Part shown: positions 1-30,486 of the stretch, one piece after another
Layout of the letters: the number at the start of each line of letters is the position of its first letter
Numbering within the stretch: the first letter of the stretch is position 1
Assembly (NCBI GenBank): GCA_022072505.1
Contig: JAJVHU010000022.1
Span: 87,603 to 151,602, forward strand
Source: Phycisphaerae bacterium
GTDB lineage: Bacteria; Planctomycetota; Phycisphaerae; UBA1845
Reading direction: 5' to 3'
Length of the DNA stretch: 64,000 nucleotides
Made by a program: the position numbers and the translations under genes
Notes under the pieces: generated by a model
What the model was told of the DNA's origin: nothing
The model's input: the letters and a program-made list of their open reading frames with translations, nothing else
The model's database searches: none

Positions 1-173
1 GCCGCCGCGGCCTTCGGATCGCCCAGCATCGACACCAGCTTGTAATCCACGACGTCGATCAGCGCCCGGGCGGTCATCGTCAGCACGGTCGGGACGGCCA
101 TCGCGATGACGCCGCGCAGCTCCGACCGCGCGTCGCGGGAGGAAAGCTCAGGGGTCGCCGTCGAAGTGGACAT
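1..173 (-). CDS. MATE-family efflux transporter, N-terminal fragment (runs off window)
   Basis: Manual translation from ATG at 173: MSTSTATPELSSRDARSELRGVIAMAVPTVLTMTARALIDVVDYKLVSMLGDPKAAA; resembles the MATE N-terminal pattern (LAxP..., D..MV..LG..A.AA). Partial. Confidence 0.55.
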   Translation of the reverse strand, partial: MSTSTATPELSSRDARSELRGVIAMAVPTVLTMTARALIDVVDYKLVSMLGDPKAAA

Positions 174-202
174 CGGTTCCGTGCGCTCCCGAAGATCCGG
201 CG

Positions 203-1057
203 TCAGACCGGCGTCCCGTCCGCATGTGACGCTTCCGACGGGGGAGCGGGCGCCTCGCCCACGGTGACCAGCAGCGGCATCAGCAGGTTGATCTTGCGCT
301 GGCGGACCCCGACGAACCCCGCCTGCTCGAAAAGACGGCGCACGAGCGACCACGGCGCGTGATGCACGTTCTTCTCGATCCGCTGGATGATGACGTCGAA
401 GACGAACCAGCCGACGGCGTTGTCCCGGAATCCGTCGATGAGCACGAGCCTCCCGCCGGGGGCGAGCACGCGGCGCATCTCGCCGACGACGGCGTCCTGA
501 TGCGGGTAATGATGAAACGAGTTCGAACACGTCACCACGTCGAACGACCCGTCCGCAAAAGGCAGATGCTCGCTGTCGGCGTTGACCACGTCCGCCGGGC
601 GGTCCGGGCGCACGCGCTCCGCCTTGTCGCGGGCCTTGCGGCACATGCTGGGCACGAAATCCAGCGCCGTGATCCTCGCCGGCCAGTCCGCCGAGGCGAC
701 CAGGGCCGCGAACGAACCGGTTCCGCAACCGATGTCCAGCAGGCGGAAGGGCTTCGGCTCGCCGCCGCACCACTCCGCGATCTCCCCCAACAGCGCCAGG
801 TACGCGGGACGGAACAGGAACGTATTCAGCAGGGATCGATCGTAGGTCTCCGCCCAACCGTGAAACTGGCGATCGGCCCCGGAACGAAACGCATGCGCCC
901 GGCGCCTGGCGTCGTCGGACCCCGAACCGGCGACCGAGGCGCCGTGCGCTGGAGCGGTGGCGCTGGGCGCGGCGGGGGAGATGGGCGCGGCAGTGGCGCT
1001 GGGCGCGGCGTCTTCCTGCGGCGGCGATGAGGTGGAGTTCGGATTGACCACGATCAT
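203..1057 (-). CDS. Class I SAM-dependent methyltransferase (UbiE/Methyltransf_11-like)
   Basis: Motifs LLDIGCGTGSF, ITALDFVPSM, LPFADGSFDVVTC, RVLAPGGRLVLID. Start placed at ATG 1057 behind GAAGAGG; ORF track start 1159 is probably too far upstream. Confidence 0.85.
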   Translation of the reverse strand: MIVVNPNSTSSPPQEDAAPSATAAPISPAAPSATAPAHGASVAGSGSDDARRRAHAFRSGADRQFHGWAETYDRSLLNTFLFRPAYLALLGEIAEWCGGEPKPFRLLDIGCGTGSFAALVASADWPARITALDFVPSMCRKARDKAERVRPDRPADVVNADSEHLPFADGSFDVVTCSNSFHHYPHQDAVVGEMRRVLAPGGRLVLIDGFRDNAVGWFVFDVIIQRIEKNVHHAPWSLVRRLFEQAGFVGVRQRKINLLMPLLVTVGEAPAPPSEASHADGTPV

Positions 1058-1269
1058 GACGACCTCTTCGCGCGCCCCGACGCCCCGACCTTTGAACCCT
1101 CGTCCCGTGCCTCCGGCGCCATCAGCCGCCCGGATGAAACGCCGCGGAACACGGAGCAAACCCGCGCAAGGGGCTTCAGGAACGTGAACCGACCGATGAG
1201 TCTATCCGCACGCATGCCTCTCGCCGAGGGCCTCCAGCCCAACGCGGCGAACCTCGGGGTCAGATAGCG

Positions 1270-1590
1270 CTATTCAATCTCGATCTGATAGCTGACGACC
1301 CACGGTTCCAACTGCTCCAGGCGGACCTTCCAACGGTCCTTGTATTCTTTGACCCAGTTCCGGTTTTCATCAGAATCGGGGACGTCGACGACCACGCGGA
1401 CAAGGTCATCGCGGTAGGTGACGCTACCCTGACGCCAGTGCCCTTCGACTTTTTGTGTTTCGTAGCTTGCCGCCCCAAATCGCCCCACGATTTCGAGCAC
1501 GGCTTCGGCAAGCCACTCCGCCGGAACTTCCCTCCCGTCGTTAAACCGAAGTGGAAGCAGAACCTCGAACCGCCGCCAACTGCTGTTCTT
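1270..1590 (-). pseudogene. Small TA-like hypothetical protein lacking a start codon (AAG where ATG expected)
   Basis: Coherent frame NSSWRRFEVLLPLRFNDGREVPAEWLAEAVLEIV...VSYQIEIE*; no usable start; AAG at 1590-1588. Confidence 0.55.
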
Positions 1591-1762
1591 AGGTCGCTTT
1601 TCCCTTGACCAGGAACGTGATGTTCTCCCCCGCAAGCGCTTCCAACGCCGCTTCCGGAACCAGGTGCTCCCCGGACTGGGTGACACGTCCCGAGAATCGT
1701 CCGAGGAGGAAGCCCAGCGCTCGTTTCTCCGTGTCTCGATCAGGGAATGTTATGGTGACCAT
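1541..1762 (-). pseudogene. Small partner protein of the 1270 ORF, truncated by TAA at 1591-1589
   Basis: ATG 1762 with GGAGAGG upstream; MVTITFPDRDTEKRALGFLLGRF...VKGKAT*; frame continues EQQLAAVRGSASTSV* to 1541. Confidence 0.55.
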
Positions 1763-1842
1763 TGTTCGCCTTGCCTCTCCGGACATTCTCCACACCGCGT
1801 CTCGCAAGATCGTTTCGGACGTTTCCGGCCCGACCCGCGAAG

Positions 1843-1851
1843 ATTATACCA
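1843..1851 (-). promoter_or_regulatory. Extended -10 promoter element TGGTATAAT
   Basis: Perfect TGnTATAAT on minus strand, about 80 nt upstream of ATG 1762 and just downstream of a gcdH-end copy. Confidence 0.5.
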
Positions 1852-1870
1852 CGAGCGCCATGAGATTGCC

Positions 1871-2028
1871 TCAAAACGCCCCATGCCGCGTGATCTCCCG
1901 GCCCACGATGAGCCGGTGAATCGACTCCGTCCCTTCATACGTAATGACGCTCTCCAGGTTCAGCGCGTGGGGGATGGGGCAGCATTCGATGCTGATCCCC
2001 CCGCGTCGAGCAACTCCCGCGCGTCGCG
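1871..2028 (-). repeat. Copy of the last 53 codons of gcdH (8063-8221) with a 1-nt deletion
   Basis: Direct alignment; encodes ...[39 protein letters not shown]. Confidence 0.95.
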
Positions 2029-2039
2029 TTACAGGATCA

Positions 2040-2258
2040 TCAGGAGCTTGTCGGCGTCTTAAGCAAACTCCCGGCCACGTTCTGAACCTTTCTTATCGCC
2101 TCGCGATCGTAGACTCGTTCGCCGCACACGGGGCATTCGTAGAACTCGACGCCGGAAACCGAATAGGGTTCCCCGCATCGTTCGCCTTGTACGGTTTTCT
2201 TGACTGCGCGAATGCGCGAACTTCCGCAGGTCGGGCACTCTTTGATTTTGATCCTCAT
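2040..2258 (-). CDS. YgiT/MqsA-type zinc-finger antitoxin-like protein
   Basis: CPTCG ... [10 protein letters not shown] motif pair; lies downstream of a DUF4258-like gene. Confidence 0.75.
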
Positions 2259-2267
2259 GCTGTTTTT

Positions 2268-2579
2268 TCACTCGCTACGCTTCGAGGAAATCAGAAAGTA
2301 ATATACGTCGGCCTCCGCATGTCGGACAATCTTGCCCTTGGTGTAGATGGCCATCCCCCCAAGATTGGTGCCTTCGATGACATACAGGTATTCGCGCCGG
2401 TGAGTCCGGCGGGAACTCGTTGAGCGAAGTCGTTTATGAATCGCCACGGCGTTAACGATCGCTTCCACCACGTCCAGCTCGGTCAGGCCGTCGGCATCCA
2501 TCTCAAGCCGGGCCTTCTCGCTGAAAGCGTATCTTCCGGTCAGCACGAGTCGTTTGATTGTAACAAGTGTGTCGGCCAA
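2268..2579 (-). CDS. DUF4258-like (RelE-fold-type) putative toxin
   Basis: YAFSEKARLEMDADGLTELDVVEAI pattern and pairing with YgiT-type zinc finger; probable TTG start at 2579. Confidence 0.6.
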   Translation of the reverse strand: MADTLVTIKRLVLTGRYAFSEKARLEMDADGLTELDVVEAIVNAVAIHKRLRSTSSRRTHRREYLYVIEGTNLGGMAIYTKGKIVRHAEADVYYFLISSKRSE

Positions 2580-2614
2580 AGTCGCGTCCCCGCAAGCACA
2601 CGGTGCGCCGCGCT

Positions 2615-2750
2615 TCAAAACGCCCCATGCCCGGTAATCTCCCGGCCCACGATGAGCTGGTGGATCGACTCCGTTCCCTCATACGTGATCACGCTCTCCA
2701 GGTTCAGCGCATGCCGGACCGGGCGGCATTCGATGCTGATGCCGACGGCG
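2615..2750 (-). repeat. Copy of the last about 45 codons of gcdH
   Basis: Direct alignment; encodes [44 protein letters not shown]. Confidence 0.95.
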
Positions 2751-2940
2751 CGGATTCCGTCTGTTCCGCAGCGGATCGAGCTTCCCTAAGTTTTTCCGCG
2801 AGGATGAGCGCGAGTTCCGGGCATTTCTCGATCTCGGCCTGCACCCGTCGCTGACGGTCCTCAGGGTCGGCCTTGACCCGTTCGCTCCCGAGACGATCCC
2901 TGATGGCTCGAAGCGTGGCAACATAACTCTTCTCAGTCAT
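2704..2940 (-). CDS. Small hypothetical protein whose 3' end runs into the gcdH-end copy
   Basis: ATG behind GAGGG; helical charged sequence; last 15 or so codons read the gcdH copy out of frame. Confidence 0.4.
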
Positions 2941-3013
2941 CCCTCGATCACCCCCACCGGAGTGTCAGTAGCGATCGCAAACGCTATCCATCGGCAGGAT
3001 GCGCCCGCGCAAC

Positions 3014-3214
3014 TCACTTGGTTCGCGTATTTGGCGCGGGTTCCGGGGCTTGACCGTGATCCTCCTTGGCCCGGCGCAGGGCTTCCAGGAACCGAGCACT
3101 GCCCTCCTGGAAGAATTCGATCTCCTCCTGCGGCGTCATGCCTCGTACTCGACGGCGGATTTCCTCCTGTGCCTTTCGTTTCATGTCCACGCAATCAAAC
3201 GTCTTCGTCTTCAT
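3014..3214 (-). CDS. Small antitoxin-like hypothetical protein
   Basis: MKTKTFDCVDMKRKAQEEIRRRVRGMTPQEEIEFF; start overlaps end of PIN gene. Confidence 0.65.
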   Translation of the reverse strand: MKTKTFDCVDMKRKAQEEIRRRVRGMTPQEEIEFFQEGSARFLEALRRAKEDHGQAPEPAPNTRTK

Positions 3215-3668
3215 ATTCAATGACCTCCGCAGGGGAGCGGATCTCCACCGCCCGATATCCATGAAGCTGATTGACCGCATTATACATGCGGGCCTTGTCG
3301 ATATGAACGATGTGCCGGAAGTTCCAGCTTACGATCAGGTCGGCTCCGCCGACCACTGCGGAAGCCACATGAGCGGCGTCATCCGCGGATTTGACGCCCA
3401 GGATGCCCGCTTTGAGGTACGCATCGCGCAGGGCCATCACTTCCCGTGTAAAGGCAACAAACGTCATCAAATGCAATTGTTGATCGAAAAAACCGCGAAC
3501 GTGGTCAGGCGCCCGTTCGATCTCCCGACGAAGCACGTCGGAGACCAGCAACCGGAACCGTCCGCCACCCGCCAGATTGAAGAATGATCGACTCGCCTCC
3601 GAAAACTCCTCGTCGAAGACGCCTCCATAAACGGAAGTATCGGCATAAGTCACAAGCCCCAGCTTCAC
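3195..3668 (-). CDS. PIN-domain (VapC-like) ribonuclease
   Basis: YADTSV ... E ... DDAAHVASA ... IVSWNFRH acidic PIN motifs. Confidence 0.8.
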   Translation of the reverse strand: MKLGLVTYADTSVYGGVFDEEFSEASRSFFNLAGGGRFRLLVSDVLRREIERAPDHVRGFFDQQLHLMTFVAFTREVMALRDAYLKAGILGVKSADDAAHVASAVVGGADLIVSWNFRHIVHIDKARMYNAVNQLHGYRAVEIRSPAEVIEYEDEDV

Positions 3669-3906
3669 GTCGATAGGTCTCCGAGCGTAAACCCCGAATC
3701 AGGGCCTTCCTCAAGGGGTCTTGGCACTGAAGAACAACCTCGCCATCAAGAATCCTCGCGGCGTAGCGCATGGGAGTTGGCGCCGGTCCAGCGTACTCGC
3801 CAAGTTGCGACGCCCCGATGGGCATCCTCCCGCTCGCGGCAAACACGGCCTCGCCGAGCGAGACCGCGCCACCCGACCGCAACGAGTTTGCATGGAGGCA
3901 ACCGGG

Positions 3907-4581
3907 TCACCACTCGTAGCCTTGGTCCTCCGCGATCGCATACAAAGTTATCATGCCGATGAGCAGCATGGTGACGCGGTTGTATCCCGACGCATCACCT
4001 GATTGCCGAGCCTCGTTTTGCTGTTTCGCGAGTTCACCCAGGAAAGGCATGGCCGGCAGAGCTTCTTCATATCTCTTGTTCCACTCCGCAGTCGTACCAC
4101 CTGTTTCTGCTACCACGAGAGAGGTAAATCGTTCGATGAACGAGCGCGAGTCGATCCGGCTAAAAAACTCTCGCAATTCCATTTTCGGTTTCTCCCGCAT
4201 TTGGGTTCTTGCCCAGGACGTAAACGACTCTTTGTTAAGATTCCCCTCCGCAAGCCGCCTGATCATAGGCTCGGCTTCGTCAGGCGTGGCGTCGAACGCC
4301 CAGCCGTTGTCGGCGAGGAAGGCGATCATCGCCGCCGTCGCCGCGCGCTTGTTACCGTCCACGAAAGGATGATTCATGCAGACGTGGAACGCGTACGCCG
4401 CCGCCATGGCCTGAATGTCCGGGTGGAGGTATGCGCCGGCGAATTGCTGTCTGGGCATGGCCATCGCCGACTCCAATCCCCCACGATCGCGAATGGATGG
4501 GTTACCCCCCTGATCTTCGATGGCAATGGCGTGGAGCGCCAGAATATCCTCGATGGCCAGGAAGCGCGGGCCGGCGTTCAC
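3907..4581 (-). CDS. Fic/Doc (death-on-curing) family toxin with C-terminal extension
   Basis: Fic motif HPFVDGNKRAA; N-terminal IRDRGGLESAMAMP typical of Doc. Confidence 0.85.
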   Translation of the reverse strand: MNAGPRFLAIEDILALHAIAIEDQGGNPSIRDRGGLESAMAMPRQQFAGAYLHPDIQAMAAAYAFHVCMNHPFVDGNKRAATAAMIAFLADNGWAFDATPDEAEPMIRRLAEGNLNKESFTSWARTQMREKPKMELREFFSRIDSRSFIERFTSLVVAETGGTTAEWNKRYEEALPAMPFLGELAKQQNEARQSGDASGYNRVTMLLIGMITLYAIAEDQGYEW

Positions 4582-4790
4582 TTGGCGAGCCTTCGCATCA
4601 ATTCGCCGTGCTTTCCGAACACTTCACGCACATGCCGATCCAGACGCGCGGAATCGCAACCCGGCAGGAGCCGAGCATGGAGGTATCGGATGTAGGCTGA
4701 AAGCGACAGGTTCAGTTTGGCGGCCTCAGTTTCGAGTTGACGCCGAAGCTCCGGCGTCGCCTGGAACTGGATGGTTTCCGTGGTGGACAT
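4578..4790 (-). CDS. Ribbon-helix-helix-type antitoxin
   Basis: IQFQATPELRRQLETEAAKLNLSLSAYI; 4-nt overlap with Doc gene. Confidence 0.65.
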   Translation of the reverse strand: MSTTETIQFQATPELRRQLETEAAKLNLSLSAYIRYLHARLLPGCDSARLDRHVREVFGKHGELMRRLAK

Positions 4791-4884
4791 CTCGTTTAGT
4801 CTGCCCCTAAATTATCTGAAAATCAAGCCTCGCGCCCCTCTGGCCGGAATGATCCCGCCGCGTTCCCTTCCTCGTGGGGCTGGT

Positions 4885-4950
4885 TTATTCTAGCCTCCTG
4901 ATTCCACGCACGCCACGTTCATCCATCCCGATCCCCCCAAACGCCCCTCT
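4885..4950 (-). repeat. Degenerate copy of gcdH stop region + leader + first codons of brnT
   Basis: Shares ACGCACG...CGTTCATCCA...AAACGCCCC with 8026-8075; encodes MRGIRRLE* vs MRRIRRLEW of brnT. Confidence 0.6.
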
Positions 4951-5110
4951 ACCTCGTGATCTGGCGGTCGCGACGGGCCTCATGGCGAAGAAATTTAAAA
5001 CGTCGAGGCGACGACCCGACCTACGAAGACTGAATAAACCTCAAAGTGTCGGCTCATGACTCGACCCACGAAGACTTGATCCGGACGGTTCGCAACGTTG
5101 GCTCGATCGT

Positions 5111-5884
5111 TCAAAGCCATGGCATGCGGGTCTTGTCCAAGCTTCCATCGTCTCGGATGAAATCCGCGTGGTTTATGCAAATGCTAGCTTTATGGCCATC
5201 ACCGCCAGCTTCATACACGAAGCCACAGACATTCCAATCCTGTTGCCCGCTCTTCTGATAGAATGCCATGCAACCACTCATTCCGCTTAGAGAACCGAAG
5301 TCCGCCAAATGAGGGTTCGCTTTCCGAATGCGACGTTCGAGTTGCTCGTCGACGAGCATTACCTGACGGTCTGAAACGCTGGACACGAAATCACAGATCG
5401 CGGTCAGTCGACACTCAAGTCCCCTTTTCGAGACTTCTCGGTGCAATTCCGGAAATCCGACGAGAAACACGATGTCTCCCTTGCTTGGACGAGGTGGCGG
5501 CCAGCCGCCAGGCCGATAGAAGTGCTTTCCCCCTTTCTCGATTCTCTCGATGAAATGAGTATCCGGGAATTCGAGGACCGCCAAGTCGACGCCCAATTCC
5601 CTGACGACACAAGCCGACGAAATATCGAGCGGTCGCTGCTCCGACCCACATGTCACCGCTAGAATTGCGGCTGGGTTGTTCCGCCGCTCGTGTTCAAAGG
5701 CATCGATGACGTGGGAGTTTGTAATCAGCAGCTTTTTCACGCCCGTGTGAAGAAACGAAATCGTGCCATTCCGCAGCGCGCTTTCCGCCCCTTCCTTGTT
5801 GCGAAGGATAAGGGCCATGCCAACATACGGGCTGAATAGCGATATCCCCTTCTCCATTTTGGACATAAACTGATTGTCGTCCAC
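5111..5884 (-). CDS. Stand-alone trypsin-like serine protease
   Basis: Triad motifs in order: LITNSHV (His), VDLAVL (Asp), GMSGC (Ser). Probable GTG start at 5884 behind AAGGA. Confidence 0.6.
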   Translation of the reverse strand: MDDNQFMSKMEKGISLFSPYVGMALILRNKEGAESALRNGTISFLHTGVKKLLITNSHVIDAFEHERRNNPAAILAVTCGSEQRPLDISSACVVRELGVDLAVLEFPDTHFIERIEKGGKHFYRPGGWPPPRPSKGDIVFLVGFPELHREVSKRGLECRLTAICDFVSSVSDRQVMLVDEQLERRIRKANPHLADFGSLSGMSGCMAFYQKSGQQDWNVCGFVYEAGGDGHKASICINHADFIRDDGSLDKTRMPWL

Positions 5885-5889
5885 GATTG

Positions 5890-6102
5890 TTATTCCTTGA
5901 CCATTCGTCGGTTCTCGATCGACCGAACGATGTCGTCCAAGGTCAGAGGGTCGAGCCACTGATGCCGTTCCGCCGTGTAGTCACCGCGCCCGGGGTCGAA
6001 CATCCGCAGGAACCGGATCATGCCGGCCGGGCCCAGTCGTTCGTTCAGGGCCTCCAGTCCGGCGCGACGGACTTCGGGGTCGGATAGAACTGGATGGGTC
6101 AT
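5890..6102 (-). CDS. Small antitoxin-like protein
   Basis: EVRRAGLEALNERLGPAGMIRFLRMFDPGRGDYTAERHQWL; ATGA overlap with PIN pseudogene stop. Confidence 0.7.
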   Translation of the reverse strand: MTHPVLSDPEVRRAGLEALNERLGPAGMIRFLRMFDPGRGDYTAERHQWLDPLTLDDIVRSIENRRMVKE

Positions 6103-6523
6103 AATCCAATCACCTCTGTTATCCATTGAACTGGATTCTCAACGCGAACGGACAGTTTACCTCTCATGCGCTTGGCCAACTTCAGCAGAGAATCATCCGT
6201 GGTCAGGAAAACCTCGCAGGCCGAATTCTCGGAACACGCAACATGGAGCGCGTCCATCGGCCCGAACCCATCGGCGACGAGCTTTCCGGCGCGTTTCACG
6301 ATCGAATCCGACAATGTCGCGTTTTCATCGGCCAGCGGAGTAAAGCCAAGACCTTGCTTCGTCGCTCCTCGTCCGGGTTCGCATTGATTTCCCGCAGCAC
6401 GGCGTCACTGACAATCCAGATGAGTTTCCCTTTCTGCGCGAGACGAAAGATCGACTCAACGGCATCGCTTTCCACGCGAATTCGTTCCTACGACTGATCG
6501 TCGAAGGGTCGGCTCAGGCAGCA
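6099..6523 (-). pseudogene. PIN-domain toxin pseudogene
   Basis: CCLSRPFDDQS*ERIRVE...DALHVAC...FLTTDD; no start, in-frame TAG at 6490-6488, frameshift near 6340. Confidence 0.8.
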
Positions 6524-6571
6524 CGGATCGGGCAGCATTCGATGCTGATCCCGCCGGCGCCGAGCAGGTCG
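6524..6571 (-). repeat. 48-bp internal fragment of the gcdH 3' region
   Basis: Matches about 8163-8210 with one silent change (GGC to GGG). Confidence 0.9.
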
Positions 6572-6592
6572 GGAGCTTTGGTCTGCGCGCCA

Positions 6593-7468
6593 TCAGATGC
6601 GGTCACTCCGCGGGTACACCAGGTTCATCGATCGGTTCAGGTCCGGATGCTCATCGAGAATCCGCCCGGTTACGTATTTGATCCAAGTTCCAAGAACGAA
6701 TCGCCGTTCCTTGTTCCACGAGTGCTGAATCGCAACAAGTCGAACCTGCTTCGGCGACCAGCCGCCAAGGGCAGAGGACTTCGGGTCGGCGATTCGCCAA
6801 ATCCCACAACCGCTTACACCGTGGATTCTGGGCAAGCGCACGCCAGTACCGCTTTTGATTTCAACCCCATCCTGAGTAAAGTTCAGCGCGACGTGCACGT
6901 TGGGATCGAAGATAGAATCAACTTGAAAACTCCCTTCATAAGGGGTCGAGAAATAAGCCAAGGGCTTCTCCGCGACACCGGTCGGGCAACCGGTCGTCCA
7001 TGCCCGCGGATAGCCCACGATCATGTACCAACCTTGACCGTCGTCGTTGTGACCAACCCGGTCATGACGAAGAAATGCCTTCGTGGCCTTGAGGTGCTCG
7101 ACGGTCTCGAGGTCCAACTCGATGGCGCAGATATCGCGTGCTGATCGCTTGGAAGCCTCGGTGCCACGAAACCAGCACTCGGGCCCGCACAAGGGGACTG
7201 GCAATGAGTCGAGTTCGCCCCTCGAGACGTAGAGAGGAATCTGAGCATTGATTGCGTCTGCGAAAGTACGTCCGTCGTCTCCGACGTGGGAAGCCGTTAG
7301 GATGAAGTGGCGATCAGCAATGGCGTACAGCACGCCACTGCGATCGTGTCTGACTTGATCATCCTGAACGGTCCAGATGCCAACCGTATGTCGTTCGATG
7401 CCGGGAAGGCACTCGGTTTCAATCTTCTTGATAAAAGCGGTCATTCGTGGAAATGTTTCTTGTGACAT
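6593..7468 (-). CDS. Stand-alone trypsin-like serine protease
   Basis: ILTASHV (His), RDICAIEL (Asp), GVSGCGIW (Ser); ATG 7468. Confidence 0.6.
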   Translation of the reverse strand: MSQETFPRMTAFIKKIETECLPGIERHTVGIWTVQDDQVRHDRSGVLYAIADRHFILTASHVGDDGRTFADAINAQIPLYVSRGELDSLPVPLCGPECWFRGTEASKRSARDICAIELDLETVEHLKATKAFLRHDRVGHNDDGQGWYMIVGYPRAWTTGCPTGVAEKPLAYFSTPYEGSFQVDSIFDPNVHVALNFTQDGVEIKSGTGVRLPRIHGVSGCGIWRIADPKSSALGGWSPKQVRLVAIQHSWNKERRFVLGTWIKYVTGRILDEHPDLNRSMNLVYPRSDRI

Positions 7469-7505
7469 CCTTGACTCTTCAGAACTTCGAGAATTGGACC
7501 GCAAT

Positions 7506-7757
7506 TCATCCGATCTCCGTCAACCGCTCCTTCAACCATCGCTGCACAAGCCTCTGCGGCGTCGTGCGTCGTCGCTTGGCTTCCAACAGCACGCGACGCC
7601 ACACAGCGCTGCCGAGTTCGATCACTCCGTTCTCGGGTCGCACGAACACTGTTGAGGTGTCCTCTTCCAGTTCGTCCAGGAACTCTGTCACCTCGTGCCC
7701 GTCCCAGAAAGCGGCCTCTTCGGCTTCGGATTTGAACTTTGGGATTTTGGATTTCAT
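7506..7757 (-). CDS. brnA: BrnA/CopG-family antitoxin
   Basis: IPKFKSEAEEAAFWDGH motif; ATGA overlap with brnT. Confidence 0.7.
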   Translation of the reverse strand: MKSKIPKFKSEAEEAAFWDGHEVTEFLDELEEDTSTVFVRPENGVIELGSAVWRRVLLEAKRRRTTPQRLVQRWLKERLTEIG

Positions 7758-8032
7758 CGTTGTGTACTCCGCCTTCGGTAATATCGCTTTTCCTTGTCGG
7801 TCATATTCCGGGCCGTAATGCACCGCGCTAGTCCGTGGGCTTTGAATCGCAGAACGACGACAAGATGCCGCCCGGCGTGCGTCTGTCCAAGTGCAACGTG
7901 AGATCCCTGCCGGGATCGCACGAGCATCGGGCGCGCGAAACAAACTTCCTCCACCTCCTCGGGTGAAACGCCGTGCCGGGCGATGTGCTCCTCATTATGC
8001 TCATCCCATTCAAGGCGACGTATTCTACGCAC
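7754..8032 (-). CDS. brnT: BrnT-family ribonuclease toxin
   Basis: EWDEHNEEHIARHGVSPEEVEE ... GQTHAGRHLVVV ... ITARNM. Confidence 0.85.
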   Translation of the reverse strand: MRRIRRLEWDEHNEEHIARHGVSPEEVEEVCFARPMLVRSRQGSHVALGQTHAGRHLVVVLRFKAHGLARCITARNMTDKEKRYYRRRSTQR

Positions 8033-8062
8033 GATTGGCCTCGTTCATCCAGAAGCGGGTTC

Positions 8063-9226
8063 TCAAAACGCCCCATGCCCGGTAATTTCCCGCCCCACGA
8101 TAAGCTGGTGAATCGACTCCGTGCCCTCATACGTGATCACGCTCTCCAGGTTCAGCGCGTGGCGGATCGGGCAGCATTCGATGCTGATGCCGCCGGCGCC
8201 GAGCAGGTCGCGGGCGTCGCGGGCGACGTCGAGGCCCATGCGGACGCAGTGCCACTTCGCCAGCGACACCTGCGAATGGTGCATCGTGCCGGCGTCCTTG
8301 AGTCTGCCAAGTTGCAGGCACAGGAACTGCGACGTGGTGATCTGCCGCACCATGTCCGCCAGGCGCACCTGGATGAGCTGCTTGCGGTCCAGCGTCGTCC
8401 CGAACAGCACGCGCTGCCTGGCGAACTCGAGGCACTCGCGGTAGCAGGCCATCGCCGCGCCGATGCCGCCCCACGCGATGCCGTACCGCGCCTGCGTCAG
8501 GCACCCCAGCGGCGCGCCCAGCCCCTCCGCTTTCGGCAACCGGTTTGCATCCGGCACTTTCACATTGTCGAAGAACAGCTCGCTGGTGATCGAGGCGCGC
8601 AGCGAGAACTTGTGCGGGATGTCGCGCGTGGTGTATCCCGGCATGCCCTTTTCCACGATGAATCCACGAATGCCGTCGTCCGTCGCCGCCCAGACGATCG
8701 CCAGGTCCGCCAGCGAACCGTTGGTGATCCACATCTTCGCGCCGCTGATGACCCAGTCGCCGCCCTTTTTCACCGCCCGCGTCTTCATCGTGCCGGGGTC
8801 CGATCCGCCGTCCGGCTCCGTGAGTCCGAAGCAGCCGATCTTCCGCCCCTTGGCCATCTCGGGCAGGAAGCGCTCTTTCTGCTCCGGCGATCCGTAGGCG
8901 TGGATCGGATACATGCACAACCCGGACTGCACGGAGGCGAAGCTGCGCACGCCGCTGTCGCCGCGCTCCAGCTCCTGCATGATGAGTCCGTAGGCGACGT
9001 TGTTGAGGCCCGCGCAGCCGTAATCGGTGAACGTCGGTCCGAAGAGGCCCATCTCGGCCATCTCGGGCACGAGGTCCATCGGGAAGCGCTCCTTTTCGAA
9101 GCACTCGCCGATGATCGGCAGCACGCGCTCGTCCACCCAGCGGCCGACGGTGTCACGCACCTGGCGCTCGTCGTCGGTGAGGCAGGCGTTGAAGTCGAAC
9201 AAGTCCGGTTGTTTCGTATCAGGCAC
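8063..9226 (-). CDS. gcdH: Acyl-CoA dehydrogenase, glutaryl-CoA dehydrogenase-like
   Basis: GCFGLTEPDGGSDP, GAKMWITN, C-terminal TYEGTESIH; 387 aa. Confidence 0.85.
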   Translation of the reverse strand: MPDTKQPDLFDFNACLTDDERQVRDTVGRWVDERVLPIIGECFEKERFPMDLVPEMAEMGLFGPTFTDYGCAGLNNVAYGLIMQELERGDSGVRSFASVQSGLCMYPIHAYGSPEQKERFLPEMAKGRKIGCFGLTEPDGGSDPGTMKTRAVKKGGDWVISGAKMWITNGSLADLAIVWAATDDGIRGFIVEKGMPGYTTRDIPHKFSLRASITSELFFDNVKVPDANRLPKAEGLGAPLGCLTQARYGIAWGGIGAAMACYRECLEFARQRVLFGTTLDRKQLIQVRLADMVRQITTSQFLCLQLGRLKDAGTMHHSQVSLAKWHCVRMGLDVARDARDLLGAGGISIECCPIRHALNLESVITYEGTESIHQLIVGREITGHGAF

Positions 9227-9249
9227 TTTCGTTCTCCGTATATCCGAGC

Positions 9250-9267
9250 CGCGGGATTCATCCCGCG
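9250..9267. repeat. REP-like hairpin CGCGGGAT-TC-ATCCCGCG
   Basis: Perfect 8-bp stem in the intergenic region upstream of gcdH. Confidence 0.5.
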
Positions 9268-9275
9268 CGATCTTT

Positions 9276-9442
9276 CCGAGCCGCGCCCGTCAGGAAGCGG
9301 TTACGCGCCTAAGACGCTGTTTCAAAACCGAGCCGCGCCCGTCAGGAAGCGGTTACGCGCTAAGACGCTGTTTCAAAACCGAGCCGCGCCCGTCAGGAAG
9401 CGTTCTTTTTCCCATCGGCACCGGCGGTTTTGCAACAGCGTC
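9276..9442. repeat. REP-like unit x3 nested in a MITE-like element with 15-bp terminal inverted repeats
   Basis: CCGAGCCGCGCCCGTCAGGAAGCG at 9276, 9328, 9379; GACGCTGTTTCAAAA (9364-9378) and TTTTGCAACAGCGTC (9428-9442) are 14/15 inverted. Confidence 0.75.
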
Positions 9443-9660
9443 CAAGTCCGAGCCCCGTATCGGGTACGTCCTCTCTCCGAGAGGACGATTGCGCGCGCCG
9501 CAAACCAGCGATTCCACCCGTCCTCATCGCATTGAAGAACCGCTCCTCGTCCAGGCGAGTCACGCACTTCACGTTCGCAGCGCCGACAGGGCCTCTCGGA
9601 GAGAGGCCCTACCCCGCCCGCGCCCGTCCCTCGCGTTCTCCGGCGCCGACCCCGCATCAC

Positions 9661-11901
9661 TCATCCCAAACGGTCGAGCCATGATTGTACAAGGTCGCGC
9701 TCTCGCTTCATCCCGATCCGGGCGAAGAGATCCCGCGCCTGCGTCCAGAGCGTTCGCGCCGCGTCCAGGTTCCCGCGCGTCAGTTCGATCGCCCCCAGGT
9801 TGCCGTACTGGATGGCCATGCCCTCCAGCCGGCCGAGCTTCTCCTCGATGGCCAGCGCCTCCTTAAGGTAGGTCTCCGCCGCGTCGAGGTTCCCGCGCGT
9901 CAGTTCGATCACCCCCAGGTTCCCGTACTGGTTGGCCATACCCTCCAGCCGGCCGAGCTTCTCGTCGATGGCCAGCGCCTTCTTGACCCAGGCCTCCGCC
10001 GCGTCGAGGTTCCCGCGCGTCCGCTCGATCAGCCCCAGGTTGCCGTACTGGTTGGCCATGCCCTCCAGCCGGCCGAGCGTCTCGTTGATGGCCAGCGACT
10101 TCTTGTGGTAGGCCTCCGCCGCGTCCAGGTTCCCGCGCGTCTGTTCGATCAGCCCCAGGTTGCCGTACTGGTTGGCCATGCCCTCCAGCCGGCCGAGCTT
10201 CTCCTCGATGGCCAGCGCCTCCTTAAGGTAGGTCTCCGCCGCGTCGAGGTTCCCGCGCGTCAGTTCGATCAGCCCCAGGTTGCCGTGCTGGATGGCCATG
10301 CCCTCCAGCCGGCCGAGCTTCTCGTCGATGGCCAGCGCCTTCTTGACCCAGGCCTCCGCCGCGTCGAGGTTCCCGCGCGTCCGCTCGATCAGCCCCAGGT
10401 TGCCGTAGCTGTCGGCCATCCCCTCGAGCCGGCCGAACTTCTCTTCGATAGCCAGCGACTTCTTCTGGTAGGCCTCCGCCGCGTCCAGGTTCCCGCGCGT
10501 CTTTTCGATCACCCCCAGGTTGCCGTACGCGTTGGCCATGCCCTCCAGCCGGCCGAGCTTCTCCTCGATGGCCAGCGCCTCCTTAAGGTAGGTCTCCGCC
10601 GCGTCGAGGTTCCCGCGCGTCAGTTCGATCACCCCCAGGTTCCCGTAGCTGTCGGCCATCCCCTCCAGCCGCCCGAGCTTCTCACTGATGGCCAGCGATT
10701 TCCTGAGGTACGCCTCCGCCGCGTCCAGGTTCCCGCGCGTCCCTTCGATCAGCCCCAGGTTGCCGTAGGCAACGGCACGCGCAGCGTCATCGAGCGCCAG
10801 TTGCAGCACCCGCTGATAGCTGGCTTCTGCCCCGGACAGGTCTCCTTGGAGCCTTAAAATGTGTCCGCGGCGGTTGATGGCGTCGAGGTCGTTGGGAACC
10901 ACGGAGAGGATGATGTTGAGTGAACGCTCCGCCTGGTCGATCTCCCCGACGAGATAGGCCCACTCGGCGATCTGTCGGTGCAAATCGAGGGTCTGGGCCT
11001 GCGGCTGCGCTACGAGATCCAGGAGAGCCTCCACGATGGCCTTTCCGCCGCGCTCCTTGAGGGAGTTGACCAAACCCGCCGCATCCTTGACGGCCATCAG
11101 GCCCGCCGCCAGTCGTTCCGCCGCTTCGCGCGCCGATCGCTCCTGGGCAAGCTGCTCGGAGTATTTCCTTTCAAGCTCGTCCGTAAGTCGTCGGCGCAAC
11201 TTATCCTCGCTGAGCTTCTCGCGCCGCGCATGTTCCAGCAGTTCGGCCAAGGCCGCGCCGTGCTCCCGCTGTCCGGTCTTGATATCCGCCAGTGCCGCGC
11301 CTTGCTCCCGCTGTCCGGTCTTGATATCCGCCAGGGCGGCGTTGACCTTCGCGAGTTCAGTGCGCAGGGCAGTCATACCGTCCTTCAGCTCGGCGACGGT
11401 TTCGGGCATGGCCGAGAGGCATTTCTTGAACTCATCGAAGTTGTCGGTGAGCAACTGCTCGATGTGTACGAGCAGGTTGTAGTGCGTCTCGCCCTGGTTC
11501 TGGATTGCTTTAAGAAACTCCTCGTTCGCGGCGTCGCGATGGCGCATCGCTTCGTCGAGCAGGGCGATGCGCTTGAACAAGCCCTCGCCGGTGAATTGGA
11601 GCTGAAAGCCGAGGGCCTCAAGCTCCTTCTCGGCGTGGGCGGAACGCTTGCGGAGGATGTTCAGCGCGGCTTGTTGCTTTTGATTGTCCCGCGCGTCCTT
11701 CTTCTGCCCCTTCCAGGACAGCCCGAGGAAACCGAGGATGCAGCCCCCGGCCAGCGCGATGGGGAACCCGCCGCCTGCGGCAGCGCCGGCGATTGCTCCT
11801 GTCGTGGCGATGTCCGATGCGGTCTGCCACAACCCGTTGGCGGCGAGGTTGTTGAGCAACCCCTTGACGCAGTCCAGGGAACATGCGACGGCGTGCTTCA
11901 T
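9661..11901 (-). CDS. Tetratricopeptide-repeat protein with N-terminal hydrophobic segment and coiled coil
   Basis: Nine near-identical 40-aa units GNLG.IE.TRGNLDAAE....LAI.EKLGRLEGMA. Confidence 0.9.
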   Translation of the reverse strand: MKHAVACSLDCVKGLLNNLAANGLWQTASDIATTGAIAGAAAGGGFPIALAGGCILGFLGLSWKGQKKDARDNQKQQAALNILRKRSAHAEKELEALGFQLQFTGEGLFKRIALLDEAMRHRDAANEEFLKAIQNQGETHYNLLVHIEQLLTDNFDEFKKCLSAMPETVAELKDGMTALRTELAKVNAALADIKTGQREQGAALADIKTGQREHGAALAELLEHARREKLSEDKLRRRLTDELERKYSEQLAQERSAREAAERLAAGLMAVKDAAGLVNSLKERGGKAIVEALLDLVAQPQAQTLDLHRQIAEWAYLVGEIDQAERSLNIILSVVPNDLDAINRRGHILRLQGDLSGAEASYQRVLQLALDDAARAVAYGNLGLIEGTRGNLDAAEAYLRKSLAISEKLGRLEGMADSYGNLGVIELTRGNLDAAETYLKEALAIEEKLGRLEGMANAYGNLGVIEKTRGNLDAAEAYQKKSLAIEEKFGRLEGMADSYGNLGLIERTRGNLDAAEAWVKKALAIDEKLGRLEGMAIQHGNLGLIELTRGNLDAAETYLKEALAIEEKLGRLEGMANQYGNLGLIEQTRGNLDAAEAYHKKSLAINETLGRLEGMANQYGNLGLIERTRGNLDAAEAWVKKALAIDEKLGRLEGMANQYGNLGVIELTRGNLDAAETYLKEALAIEEKLGRLEGMAIQYGNLGAIELTRGNLDAARTLWTQARDLFARIGMKRERDLVQSWLDRLG

Positions 11902-19690: not shown

Positions 19691-19895
19691 CGCGAGGAGC
19701 AGGTCCGCGCCCGCGTGACGCCCGGGAGGCGTCCGCGGGCGGGATCGAGCGATGACGGGAAGCCGGCGCAGAAAGGCGCGGTTTTCCCAGCAGGTTGCGG
19801 CGTCTGACCTGGGACACCCCGATCCTGTCGGGCAGACGGGACGCCCGGCGTTCGGACTGGTCGGGCTCAGCAAGGAGTTATTTATTCGTAAAGCA

Positions 19896-21494: not shown

Positions 21495-22051
21495 TGGTCC
21501 GAGGGGAAGGCGCGGTGAACGCGAAATCCGAACAAGTCGTGGCGACGTTGACGGAGCGGTTTCCGGACATTGCTTTCGCGCCCTTTGCGTTGGCGGCGAC
21601 CCGGCGTCCGGAAGACGAGCAGACGTGCGTGCGCGTTCCGGCGGATCGGTTGCTGGAGGTGATGAGGTTTTTGTACGACGACCCGCGCTGCCGGTTCGAG
21701 CAGTTGTGCGACCTGACGTGCGTGGATTACCTGAACTTTCCGAAGGCGCGGGATCGGTATGGCGTGACGTACTCGCTGTTGTCGCTGTCTCTGGAGCAGC
21801 GGATCTGGGCGAAGTGCTTCGTGAACGACCCGAGTCCGGAGGCGCCGAGCGTGACGGGCATCTGGCGCGGGGCGGAGTGGATGGAGCGCGAAGTGTACGA
21901 CCTTTTCGGCGTGCGGTTTGCCGGACATCCAGACTTGCGGCGGATCATGACGTGGGAAGGGTTCACGGCGCACCCGCTTCGGAAGGACTATCCCCTGCGC
22001 GGACGCGGCGAGCGGGAGCGCTTCGAGGTTGTGACGACGGAGAGCGCGTGA
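21494..22051 (+). CDS. nuoC: NADH-quinone oxidoreductase subunit C
   Basis: WMEREVYDLFGVRF.GHPDLRRI, HPLRKDYP; start ATG 21494 or GTG 21515. Confidence 0.95.
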   Translation: MVRGEGAVNAKSEQVVATLTERFPDIAFAPFALAATRRPEDEQTCVRVPADRLLEVMRFLYDDPRCRFEQLCDLTCVDYLNFPKARDRYGVTYSLLSLSLEQRIWAKCFVNDPSPEAPSVTGIWRGAEWMEREVYDLFGVRFAGHPDLRRIMTWEGFTAHPLRKDYPLRGRGERERFEVVTTESA

Positions 22052-22056
22052 GGAGA

Positions 22057-22161
22057 GGCAACAGGGAATAGGCGACAGGGAATAGGCAATAGGCAATAGG
22101 CAATAGGCAACAGGCAACAGGCAACAGGCAACAGGCAACAGGCAACAGGCAACAGGGAACA
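22057..22161 (+). repeat. Heptamer tandem repeat GG(C/G)AA(C/T)A x15
   Basis: Counted 15 consecutive 7-nt units. Confidence 0.95.
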
Positions 22162-22261
22162 GGGAAAAAACCTTGGCAGAAGTCTGCGTGCTGTTTCTTG
22201 ACGGTGTGCATTGCAGGAGTCACGGGGCGAAAGCGAACTTCGGGCCGGTGGGAGGGTAGAC

Positions 22262-22777: not shown

Positions 22778-23023
22778 ATGCGGAGCTTAAGGAAGGAGAA
22801 AGTAGTCGCTACCAGAAAACGACGACGCGAGGTCGCGGAGGAGATGGAGGCTTTGCGATCGGCGCAACGCAACCAGCGCTTCGCGGCAGCGTGGCGCATG
22901 TCTGAGTTGACGCACTACATTCAAACCGGGCAGTGCGCAATGCCGCGCCTGGATCGGAGCGTCGCATCTTTGTGGAAACGTACGCCACGGGGGCGGCGGC
23001 TTATCCGGCGGATCTCCTTATGA
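22778..23023 (+). CDS. Small basic hypothetical protein
   Basis: Open frame; stop overlaps (ATGA) the ATG of the nuoD 5' copy. Confidence 0.45.
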   Translation: MRSLRKEKVVATRKRRREVAEEMEALRSAQRNQRFAAAWRMSELTHYIQTGQCAMPRLDRSVASLWKRTPRGRRLIRRISL

Positions 23024-23142
23024 CCACTGCCACCACCATCCCGCCCGAACCGTCTACATTCGCCCCGGAGGAACCCGGCGGCGATTTGTGGACGCCGCAC
23101 TTGGGCCCGTGGTGCCCGGCGACGCATACCGCCCCGCCCCGG
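23020..23142 (+). repeat. Abandoned copy of the first about 40 codons of nuoD
   Basis: MTTATTIPPEPSTFAPEEPGGDLWTPHLGP vs MTTATYNPPEPSTFAPEEPGGDLWTLNFGP at 23573. Confidence 0.95.
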
Positions 23143-23229
23143 GTGCATGGTCGCGGCGTGGAGAGTGTCATTCCGCGTCGCGGGAATAGCGTAACACAGT
23201 TGGTTCAGGCGTATCGGAGTTGAGTCGCG

Positions 23230-23427
23230 ATGATCGCGTACAAGACCATTGCCACACTCTCGAAAGACCATTCCGTCACGCTCGAAGCGTTGCCGTTCTC
23301 GGCGGGTGAACAGGTGGAGGTCATTCTTCTTGCGAGAACACCCGGCAACGGCGAGCCGACCTTCCCGCTGCGTGGTCGGCCTGTGAAATATGTGAACCCG
23401 ACAGACCCTGTCGGGGAAAAGGATTGA
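23230..23427 (+). CDS. Small antitoxin-like protein, possibly C-terminally truncated
   Basis: VTLEALPFSAGEQVEVILL...PLRGRPVKY..PTDPV pattern. Confidence 0.6.
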   Translation: MIAYKTIATLSKDHSVTLEALPFSAGEQVEVILLARTPGNGEPTFPLRGRPVKYVNPTDPVGEKD

Positions 23428-23441
23428 GGACGGGTTGTCCG

Positions 23442-23552
23442 CGTGATCCGGTGGACCAGCTCATTGCGGCGACGGCGCGAATCCACGGATGTGAGCTTGC
23501 AACAGTGGATAACCGGATCATTCGCAGCGGCGTGGTACAAACGCTGAGGTGA
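23442..23552 (+). pseudogene. C-terminal remnant of VapC/PilT PIN toxin
   Basis: RDPVDQLIAATARIHGCELATVDNRI; N-terminal two-thirds absent. Confidence 0.75.
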
Positions 23553-23572
23553 AGAACGAGACGGCATAAATC

Positions 23573-29607: not shown

Positions 29608-29618
29608 GGACAAACTCG

Positions 29619-30256: not shown

Positions 30257-30440
30257 TCCGGCGATTCGCACGCGCGGCAGAGGCTGGCTGGAGGATCTGG
30301 CGCTGAATCTTCAGACCGCGCGCAACATGGGCATGATGCCGGGGTTGTCGATCTGCGGGCTGCCCGATGGAGCGACGTATCCGATCGAGACGGTGGTGAA
30401 GAAGTTCAGGGGGGAGTTGGAGGAGCGGATTCGGGCGCAG
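30257..30440 (+). repeat. nuoF 3'-end copy A
   Basis: 30309-30440 aligns gap-free to 29434-29565 (44 codons). Confidence 0.97.
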
Positions 30441-30486
30441 GCGCCGGAGGGGGCAGGGATGGCGCTGGCGGGGGGGGGCTTAATGC

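Follow-up and report, generated by a model that had tools for sequence, protein, structure and literature searches.

Displaced 3′ ends of a gcdH-like gene separate toxin–antitoxin-type cassettes in a Phycisphaerae genome and suggest repeated integrase-free insertion

Introduction

In this study, we describe an array of small gene cassettes that lies immediately downstream of a gcdH-like acyl-CoA dehydrogenase gene in an uncultured Phycisphaerae bacterium, within a 64,000-nucleotide stretch of DNA (C7:87603-151602; hereafter the window, whose own coordinates are used below). The window belongs to a 4.67-Mb metagenome-assembled genome (MAG; label G000) in 70 contigs, which is approximately 95% complete and has a GC content of 65.7%. 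The cassettes carry candidate toxin–antitoxin (TA) pairs, two of them accompanied by a trypsin-like protease, and are parted from one another by displaced copies of the last portion of the gcdH-like gene. How could such an array have been built? The reading that we favor, with a probability of roughly 0.6, is that TA cargo was inserted repeatedly, free of any integrase and with long target duplication, through host recombination that swapped allelic gene ends.

Insertion with long target duplication has been described for restriction–modification gene complexes (Nobusato et al. 2000, Gene 259:99; Furuta, Abe and Kobayashi 2010, PMC2853133). It was defined by the absence of mobility genes, by repeats longer than 30 bp in which a start or stop codon is often included and by an empty site in a relative; its mechanism was left open, and the flanking repeats can amplify the inserted unit, with instability (PMC2853133). 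In our literature search, we found no paper describing this scar for TA modules. The spread of chromosomal TA modules without a transposase or an integrase is an old open question, and the gcdH locus provides a readable record of it.

Results

The repeated unit of the array is the last ~140-165 nt of the gcdH-like gene, in which positions are counted back from the stop codon (-139, for example, is 139 nt before the stop). A BLAST search of the whole genome with the last 300 nt of the gene returned three extra copies, all just downstream of it and on the same strand, and none outside the array in the 4.67-Mb genome. The original prediction, made from the sequence of the window, had proposed four such copies. 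Three of these (6524-6571, 2615-2754 and 1871-2028) are clear, whereas the fourth, placed at 4885-4950, was missed by BLAST and is real only as an eroded copy at about 4895-4968, which consists mostly of the leader and the start of brnT. Counting outward from the gene, the copies follow the first module (6571-6524), the second (4968-4895), the fourth (2754-2615) and the fifth (2028-1871), and the identity of the clear copies to the live end drops with distance from the gene (98%, 92% and 87%). A 20-mer, ATCAGCATCGAATGCTGCCC, is common to all four sites (4 occurrences against 0.01 expected). For the eroded copy, a profile of the gcdH end gave a weak nhmmer match at 4939-4968 (E 1.6), and the gcdH-brnT leader together with the first brnT codons (live 8051-8022) could be aligned to 4925-4901 with a score of 27, compared with 16.8 +/- 2.2 for shuffled sequences. 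No sequence among 2000 shuffles and one among 1997 random genome segments scored as high, and the eroded copy is regarded as the trace of an earlier brnT-type cassette. We use the name 'gcdH-like' because, although the gene is an acyl-CoA dehydrogenase gene with all three ACAD domains, the NCBIfam glutaryl-CoA dehydrogenase models match the product of 8063-9226 only below their cut-offs; for brevity, the gene is written gcdH below.

All the modules of the array lie on the minus strand, co-oriented with gcdH and with the copies at the module boundaries, just as had been predicted. From gcdH outward, they are brnT-brnA-Tryp1, a PIN pseudogene with its antitoxin and Tryp2, an RHH (ribbon-helix-helix)-Fic/Doc pair, a PIN_3 gene with its partner, a toxin candidate followed by a YgiT/MqsA-like gene, and the pair of open reading frames (ORFs) orf1589/orf1270 (Table 1). 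The GC content is 54-61% across 1200-8000 and 66-70% in both flanks. Units of 0.74-3.8 kb are separated by gcdH-end copies of 48-160 nt, and the cassettes fit tightly between them: the first gene begins 25-30 nt past the copied stop codon, and 14-33 nt separate the end of the last gene from the next copy. The cargo, in which small toxin-like and antitoxin-like genes are paired, suggests type II TA modules. The Pfam searches supported the proposed identities of BrnT, BrnA/CopG, Fic/Doc, RHH, PIN and PIN_3, with BrnT/BrnA and, beside its RHH partner, Fic/Doc scoring above the cut-offs and PIN, PIN_3 and the MqsA-like protein below them. The YgiT label likewise holds as a zinc-ribbon match that stays below the cut-off, whereas a DUF4258 label given to 2268-2561 found no support, as this protein has no Pfam match and no similarity to a true DUF4258 protein of the genome. 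Comparison with an intact 148-aa orthologue in the congener G001 bore out the pseudogene status of the PIN gene. The antitoxin of the same module has no family match, and its paralogue on C2 lies within another duplication-bracketed insert; the PIN_3 protein has four paralogues in the genome, one of them inside a duplication of the argC end. No end of any other host gene, as would mark a cassette from another target, was found inside the array, and no RNA family was detected in an Rfam scan of 1-10000.

Two genes had been read as trypsins, and both readings were upheld. Tryp1 has no family match, and a PDB sequence search with its profile gave nothing; however, its AlphaFold model (pLDDT 73, pTM 0.80) returned 425 PDB fold matches with E<=1e-3 in Foldseek, all trypsin-like, and His61, Asp112 and Ser219 are invariant in its family. 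This family is rare, comprising 9 proteins in a search of 5.8 billion sequences. An orthologue (59%) occupies the same position in the congener G003, and in both the window and G003, the Tryp1-type gene is the last of its cassette, directly before the next end copy. Tryp2 matches Pfam Trypsin_2 with E 0.004, below the cut-off, and aligns with the Tryp1 family in hhalign over 162 columns (E 1.6e-4). Neither the proteases nor the small ORFs of the array matched any PADLOC or NCBIfam model. The proteases could be third components of their modules that control the stability of the antitoxins, or they may be separate passengers. Elsewhere, a homologue 40% identical to Tryp1 adjoins genes for a 453-aa tyrosine integrase and an excisionase-like HTH_17 protein on an unrelated metagenome contig (L075:304-2836), and another homologue (L074) stops 18 nt short of a contig end.

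Support for the assembly was sought in Logan contigs, in which four runs from two studies together cover all the junctions of the array, so that the prediction did not fail at this point. In two runs, contigs cover 1000-2705, 2681-8153 and 8129-8818 with zero differences and an even depth of 10.7-12.5, and their breaks are confined to an exact word common to the 2615 copy and the live gcdH end. A run of the second study contributed contigs across the 6524 junction and several cassettes. This coverage is support for the array rather than proof, because the sequences are assembler contigs and the best-matching runs may be the source sample itself. In related MAGs, contigs end 280-690 nt past gcdH (G004:C29, G002:C307, G014:C491 and G009:C511), which is compatible with assembly breaks induced by repeats.

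We compared the site with those of the congeners G001, G002, G003 and G004 (congeners are on record from bioreactor and wastewater samples) and, more widely, within a survey of 40 related genomes, 26 of which have a gcdH-like gene. Extra gcdH-end copies occur only in the same-genus genomes among these 26; none were found in more than 20 other genera, and 80 metagenome gcdH loci of other taxa yielded no end copies, no further arrays and no genus-level relatives. In G002, gcdH runs directly into the orf1589/orf1270 pair, with none of the other cassettes, and the sequence from -158 of gcdH through 550 nt downstream is collinear with the window's 1871 copy and the DNA that follows it (78% over 712 nt). 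G002 therefore represents a collinear empty site. G003 has gcdH, a PIN gene, a small ORF, the Tryp1 orthologue, an end copy (-153 to stop) and a thiolase gene. G001 has gcdH, BrnT (89%)-BrnA, a copy from -113 to stop, an intact PIN-antitoxin module (84%), a mini-copy (-37 to +3), other genes and thiolase, and thus shares BrnTA and PIN-antitoxin with the window. The G004 contig ends 318 nt after gcdH. It had been expected that relatives would show gcdH either next to the distal flank or followed by other cassettes; both situations were encountered (G002, and G003 and G001, respectively), and no congener carries an identical, fixed content free of end copies. The bracketing of the modules and this variation together uphold the view of a cassette array built at the gcdH end. 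The site is therefore variable within one genus, with content that is shared only in part, and deletions have taken away different segments in different lineages. In the G001 and G003 gcdH orthologues themselves (L028 and L029), in-frame insertions of ~14 and 37 residues occur at the same place (PGDSEPSRDRKGPGD; GESDPSRDRKGAGSDPSLDRKGAG...). The window gcdH is without these inserts, which may be repeat elements.

Are the displaced ends decaying duplicates of the live end? At gcdH, we compared 38 codons, from the repeat core to the stop codon, between each displaced copy and its own live gene. The synonymous and non-synonymous codon differences were 7/2, 10/3, 12/5 and 10/5, the first of these being the window's 2615-2754 copy, with 7 synonymous and 2 non-synonymous codons. 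The total of 39 synonymous to 15 non-synonymous differences gives a synonymous share of 0.72, whereas a share of 0.39-0.46 is expected if an in-situ duplicate decays while the live copy stays under selection. Across the genome, 17 comparisons of live and displaced ends gave 169 synonymous and 80 non-synonymous differences (p = 2e-15 against 0.43), and three of the 17 carry indels, which inflate the non-synonymous count. Because the codon differences are mainly silent, the displaced ends diverged mostly as working gene ends. We thus regard them as retired functional alleles and not as duplicates decaying in situ; the live end and the retired end stem from different lineages.

The same scar recurs elsewhere in the genome. 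We screened for repeats of 45-330 nt that recur on the same strand at distances of 0.3-12 kb and sorted the hits manually, because a classifier based on the longest open frame was unreliable in this GC-rich genome; paralogous C-terminal domains (the C6 array) and units resembling repetitive extragenic palindromes or miniature inverted-repeat transposable elements (REP/MITE-like; C2b, C4 and C1) were discarded. At least 15 further loci contain an insert of 0.4-3.2 kb (54-62% GC) flanked by a gene terminus that is duplicated over 74-250 nt, and at most of them, the homology ends no more than a few nucleotides from the stop or start codon. According to Pfam, the inserts encode BrnT-like and HTH (helix-turn-helix) proteins, DUF4258 and MqsA-like proteins, PIN proteins (three times), HicA, ParE and DUF433; a HicB partner of HicA and the VapBC pairs at nuoF were assigned by eye only. 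The targets identified by NCBIfam are argC, mdh, pepT, glyS (glycine-tRNA ligase; 5′ end), sucC, sat (sulfate adenylyltransferase), an aldehyde dehydrogenase gene, an NrnA-like gene targeted at both of its ends, nuoF (three copies) and nuoD (5′ end), while thiC and an M20 peptidase gene were named only from translations read by eye. With the ORFs read by eye, 12 of 13 inserts are co-oriented with their target. The insertion process is thus genome-wide rather than specific to gcdH, the gcdH locus being its most elaborate example.

Several of these loci deserve a brief description. Within the window, the nuoF array (29400-32000) comprises nuoF, an antitoxin-VapC pair, nuoF-end copy A with a different tail, a 152-aa zinc-ribbon membrane ORF, a VapC-end remnant with copy B and its native tail, a second antitoxin-VapC pair and a methyltransferase gene; a block of ~290 nt, in which a VapC end is joined to a nuoF fragment, occurs in duplicate (87%) on the two sides of the 152-aa ORF. 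The methyltransferases that close the gcdH and nuoF arrays have only the generic SAM (S-adenosylmethionine)-binding motif in common. At 23020-23699, an insert of 427 nt that contains an antitoxin-like ORF is flanked by a duplication of the nuoD 5′ end (127 nt, 80%), and the live nuoD starts at 23573. On C30 (17544-23378), three cassettes occupy 6 kb: an NYN-like gene (by eye), PIN with an antitoxin, and HicA with a partner read as HicB. There, the NrnA-like gene (18764-19792) has duplication-flanked inserts at its 3′ and 5′ ends, and the end of the sat gene is duplicated too. A second multi-tier array is found at C44:18669-22093, where four 3′-end copies of the M20-peptidase-like gene separate a ParDE pair, an aspartyl-protease-like ORF, a 279-aa ORF and a RelE-like pair. 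At C12:91255-92411, beside a phosphoglycerate-mutase-like gene, a 74-nt duplication (97%) surrounds an IS200/Y1-transposase-like ORF (by eye; partly N-masked), with boundaries that are not at a gene end. A further candidate array, C6:4745-16220, was rejected, as it consists of seven paralogous secreted-protein genes with a conserved 3′ segment of ~220 nt that encodes a C-terminal domain.

With respect to recombinases, Pfam, NCBIfam and PADLOC revealed no mobility gene among the array ORFs, serine recombinases and transposases not having been searched genome-wide. The tyrosine recombinase family PF00589 has no match on the 152-kb contig C7; it has matches at nine places elsewhere in the genome, two of which look like Xer genes. 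An imperfect inverted repeat inside gcdH (-128 to -101), which contains the 20-mer, is the segment present in all the gcdH copies, and the breaks of two truncated copies fall at this repeat or inside it: the 6524 copy ends right after it, and copy 1 of G001 begins at its center. The 20-mer, in turn, occurs in gcdH of Betaproteobacteria, Bacteroidota and Myxococcota without end copies, and 30-nt windows at 16 inner boundaries share no motif beyond GC-rich heptamers that are also found in control windows. The stretch from -194 to -100 is conserved at 93-100% among the congeners; a sliding-window comparison of gcdH between G000 and its closest congeners, made with a possible divergence step at the core in view, gave only this high conservation.

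Table 1. Features of the gcdH array and its flanks, listed outward from gcdH
Feature	Coordinates	Strand	Evidence or remark
gcdH-like acyl-CoA dehydrogenase, live	8063-9226	minus	Pfam Acyl-CoA_dh_N/M/1 all match; orthologues 91-95% identical in congeners
Imperfect inverted repeat GGCATCAGCAT-CGA-ATGCTGCCCGATCC inside gcdH, -128 to -101	8164-8191	minus	segment present in all copies
brnT toxin, first gene of module 1, 30 nt past the gcdH stop	7754-8032	minus	Pfam BrnT_toxin E 9e-12; orthologue (89% aa) at the same place in G001
brnA, CopG-type antitoxin; ATG overlaps the brnT stop (ATGA)	7506-7757	minus	Pfam CopG_antitoxin E 2e-9; orthologue in G001
Tryp1, stand-alone chymotrypsin-fold serine protease, ending 17 nt before the next gcdH-end copy	6593-7468	minus	predicted structure
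Truncated gcdH-end copy, -147 to -100 only	6524-6571	minus	98% over 48 nt; fused to the 5′-truncated PIN gene
PIN toxin pseudogene: first ~8 codons lost, in-frame TAG, frameshift	6099-6523	minus	Pfam PIN fragment; intact 148-aa orthologue in G001
Candidate antitoxin of the PIN module, start probably at 6102	5890-6126	minus	84% orthologue beside intact PIN in G001
Tryp2, second, very divergent trypsin-like protease, motifs TNSHV and GMSGC	5111-5884	minus	weak profile matches
Eroded copy: last ~30 nt of gcdH, stop, leader, first 8 brnT codons	about 4895-4968	minus	nhmmer and local alignment
RHH-type antitoxin candidate of the Doc module	4578-4790	minus	Pfam NikA-like RHH E 1e-4, below cut-off; 4-nt overlap with Doc
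Fic/Doc-family toxin, 224 aa, C-terminal extension	3907-4581	minus	Pfam Fic E 3.5e-18; PADLOC candidate-system models
PIN_3-type toxin	3195-3668	minus	Pfam PIN_3 E 5e-5, below cut-off
Small helical partner of PIN_3, probable start 3214	3014-3214	minus	paralogous pair follows PIN at argC; no family match
Hypothetical 78-aa ORF running out of frame into the next gcdH-end copy	2704-2940	minus	ORF only
Displaced gcdH end no. 2, -139 to stop	2615-2754	minus	92% over 140 nt
Toxin candidate in MqsR position	2268-2561	minus	no family match; 49% paralogue on C19
YgiT/MqsA-like zinc-ribbon antitoxin	2040-2258	minus	matches TIGR03830 (E 2.5e-7) and Pfam MqsA_antitoxin (E 1e-3) below the cut-offs
Displaced gcdH end no. 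1, most distal, about -158 to stop	1871-2028	minus	87% over 160 nt, 1-nt deletion
orf1589/orf1270, two small ORFs; ATG of the second mutated in the window	1270-1807	minus	gcdH neighbours in G002
41-nt fragment (83%) of the PIN-module antitoxin N-terminus	1227-1267	minus	sequence match
Class I SAM methyltransferase, distal flank, host-like GC 0.69	203-1159	minus	Pfam Methyltransf_11/25

Discussion

How might the array have arisen? We propose that the gcdH 3′ end would be a lineage-specific landing site for small, foreign, addiction-type cassettes, namely TA pairs, two of which come with a trypsin-like protease. The incoming DNA would carry, or recreate, a complete and functional version of the gene's final ~140-165 nt, as far as the stop codon, so that gcdH stays intact, while the previous gene end would be pushed downstream as a dead fragment and the newest cassette would adjoin the gene. 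Four to five successive arrivals would leave a trail of retired ends, and later deletions would truncate both copies and genes. Two routes of entry may be considered. In the first, a circle consisting of the cassette and one repeat, looped out between the flanking repeats of the donor, would enter by a Campbell-type single crossover (a linear cassette with a homology arm was also considered); in the second, a linear fragment would enter by homology-facilitated illegitimate recombination. Both routes would need host functions only, would suit any conserved gene and would stack the arrivals next to that gene. Crossovers would favor the most conserved stretch of gcdH, from -194 to -100, and this hairpin-prone stretch could be a preferred point of crossover or breakage without any dedicated enzyme.

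Two features of the array would follow from such a process. First, recombination between the flanking repeats would remove cassettes and is expected to be frequent; the surviving cargo would consist of addiction modules because losing a TA pair kills the cell, so that loss is counter-selected. Second, because the copies are allelic and the homology stops at a codon boundary, the entering DNA probably brought its gene end from a diverged donor; the homology would stop there because the coding sequence of the donor could still be aligned, whereas its intergenic DNA could not. We infer the host-recombination route from what the sequences display directly: the anatomy of the array, the variation among the congeners, the allelic ends, the missing recombinase signal and the recurrence of the scar.

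Several points weigh against this proposal. The assembler contigs, which were examined in place of raw reads, revealed neither an excised circle nor a donor allele or an intermediate of recombination. RecA-type recombination is inefficient on 140-165 nt at 85-92% identity. The homology model does not account for the founding event, in which a cassette and a gene end were first joined. The presence of the inverted repeat in all the copies, together with two truncations at or within it, would fit a site-specific enzyme, and a dedicated mechanism, instead of selection, might account for the co-orientation of the inserts and for boundaries that fall at the stop codon. Six tyrosine recombinase matches other than the two probable Xer genes are found elsewhere in the genome and could act in trans, and in a MAG that is 95% complete, a recombinase could be missing.

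These last points lead to an alternative that we consider unlikely, in which a trans-acting site-specific recombinase (tyrosine/Xer; integron-like or resembling that of cis-mobilizable elements, CIMEs) would join cassette circles at the inverted-repeat core, with an attP that carries the gene end. The direct repeats do restore the end of the target gene as far as the stop codon, which is the pattern of classical integrative elements; all four copies contain the inverted repeat, exactly after which the 6524 copy ends and at the center of which G001 copy 1 starts; the surrounding stretch is strongly conserved; the genome has nine tyrosine recombinase matches outside this contig; and on an unrelated contig, a Tryp1 homologue has an integrase gene and an HTH_17 gene as neighbours. 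However, the homology starts vary (-113, -139, -147, -153 and -158), and the at least 15 other targets have unrelated sequences with no motif in common, so that either many recombinases or a sequence-independent one would be needed. Moreover, the supposed core 20-mer is ordinary gcdH coding sequence in three other groups that have no copies, and no integrase is present on the 152-kb contig. We therefore gave less weight to the inverted repeat as a recombinase site, considering its occurrence as ordinary gcdH sequence in unrelated phyla, the varying homology starts and the lack of a motif at the 16 boundaries; its presence inside gcdH is probably incidental. An integron-type attC array was rejected, as there is no integrase on the contig and the separators, compared without an attC covariance model, align with gcdH coding sequence through to its stop.

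A true duplication of the target in situ, through staggered breaks or template switching, with the silent differences introduced later by conversion or replacement of the live gene, is in our judgment quite unlikely. It is the published reading for restriction–modification cargo (PMC2853133), and the ~290-nt VapC-end/nuoF block duplicated around an ORF at nuoF looks like the duplication of whatever lay at the target. The excess of synonymous differences is general, however (169 to 80), so that conversion would have to follow nearly every insertion, and the halt of the homology at a stop or start codon would be left unexplained.

The modules could also be the last remnants of large, integrase-bearing islands or prophages that integrated serially at the gcdH 3′ end and then decayed, which we consider very unlikely. 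Tandem accretion with duplicated gene ends is classical for integrative elements, the pseudogenes and truncated copies attest to active deletion, and TA addiction would favor the survival of precisely these genes. Yet the cassettes are compact on both sides (25-30 nt and 14-33 nt), no fragment of an integrase, phage or conjugation gene was found in the window array or among the ORFs listed for two congeners, a 744-bp unit consisting of a copy and two genes would hardly be reached by random decay, and the compact form is repeated at about 15 loci. That the array is an assembly artefact, with reads of several strains carrying different cassettes chained through the gcdH end, is scarcely credible: the genome is a MAG, congener contigs break soon after gcdH and the Logan contigs break at the exact word common to the live end and the 2615 copy, but independent contigs span the copies at 1871 and 6524 and the eroded copy, the depth is even (10.7-12.5) in two runs, the second study has the same junctions, the copies differ by 8-13% and can be distinguished, and two congeners from other samples have the same kind of structure.

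Repeated insertion by host recombination, the reading that we favor, invites comparison with known systems. The features by which Furuta et al. 2010 recognized long target duplication are largely found at gcdH: the insert is shorter than 20 kb, the direct repeats of target sequence exceed 30 bp, no mobility gene was detected in or next to the insert in the scans as run and G002 has the empty site; in contrast, the flanking copies are not nearly identical, the clear full-end copies sharing 87-92%. Thus, both here and in the restriction–modification insertions, a small addiction unit of foreign GC content without mobility genes lies between target-derived repeats, with an empty site elsewhere. 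The differences lie in the cargo (here TA pairs and proteases), in the length of the repeats (75-250 nt here, mostly about 45-100 nt there), in the four to five iterations that form an ordered array at one site, in the flanking copies (different alleles here, near-identical duplicates there) and in the recurrence of the scar at no fewer than 15 loci of one genome. What goes beyond the published long target duplication, on the present sequence evidence, is the TA cargo, the iteration at one site and the allelic nature of the flanking copies.

A comparable tandem accretion of integrative elements and CIMEs is that of the integrative and conjugative elements (ICEs) ICESt1/ICESt3 at fda in Streptococcus thermophilus. 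In both cases, direct repeats derived from a 3′ end part the tandem elements, the gene is restored and some units lack an integrase. In the ICE/CIME case, however, there is a cognate tyrosine integrase with a defined att core and the units are derived from ICEs, whereas here, there is no integrase on the contig, the units measure 0.7-1.7 kb and many unrelated genes are targeted. At gcdH, correspondingly, the inverted repeat would be the candidate for a common core, being in all copies, but the homology starts differ and the other loci share no motif.

Integron arrays and clusters of attC sites lacking integron-integrases (CALINs) also consist of co-oriented cassettes of ~0.7-1.7 kb, often TA pairs, with the newest at the point of entry and separators of ~50-160 nt. 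The separators of the present array are not attC hairpins but the coding end of a host gene, specific to each target gene, and neither intI nor attI was found here (no PF00589 match on the contig). The pdif modules of Acinetobacter plasmids are bounded by XerC/XerD sites and are frequently TA pairs, including brnTA. Like the cassettes, these modules are small, discrete units, often TA pairs, and they are mobile although they encode no recombinase; they differ in that they are bounded by 28-bp inverted Xer sites on plasmids, in contrast to the 75-250-nt direct copies of chromosomal gene ends described here.

If the displaced ends are retired alleles, long target duplication becomes a testable model in which a cassette travels with a gene-end arm, and TA modules would be linked to restriction–modification systems as addiction elements with a common entry route. 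One may even speculate, although we hold this to be doubtful, that the TA cassettes of this lineage, and perhaps of many others, are recombinase-free mobile elements that are targeted only by a healing copy of a conserved host gene terminus. This arm would direct host recombination to the corresponding gene in related cells while preserving its function, and the TA pair would secure residence by killing cells from which the cassette is lost through the flanking repeats. If this were true, elements with such a healing arm would be a general, hitherto undescribed answer to the question of how chromosomal TA modules move, and each new arrival would add a datable retired gene end to the trail. For metagenomics, arrays of this kind break assemblies at housekeeping genes, and they may give rise to chimeric gene 3′ ends, which matters for phylogeny and strain typing.

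Other repeats in the window

Just upstream of gcdH, 9257-9402 together with 9462-9614 contains three direct copies of a 43-nt unit, two of which are identical, and the same stretch includes a 23-nt inverted repeat pair 107 nt apart. These sequences are REP/MITE-like, and similar units are found on C2, C4 and C1. Farther upstream, 9661-11901 (minus strand) encodes a 746-aa TPR (tetratricopeptide repeat) protein, in which near-identical tandem units of 120 nt (40 aa; 85-97% identity) occur at 9637-10500. Finally, a tandem heptamer tract of ~145 nt (AGGCAAC/AGGCAAT/AGGGAAT) is located at 22042-22187.

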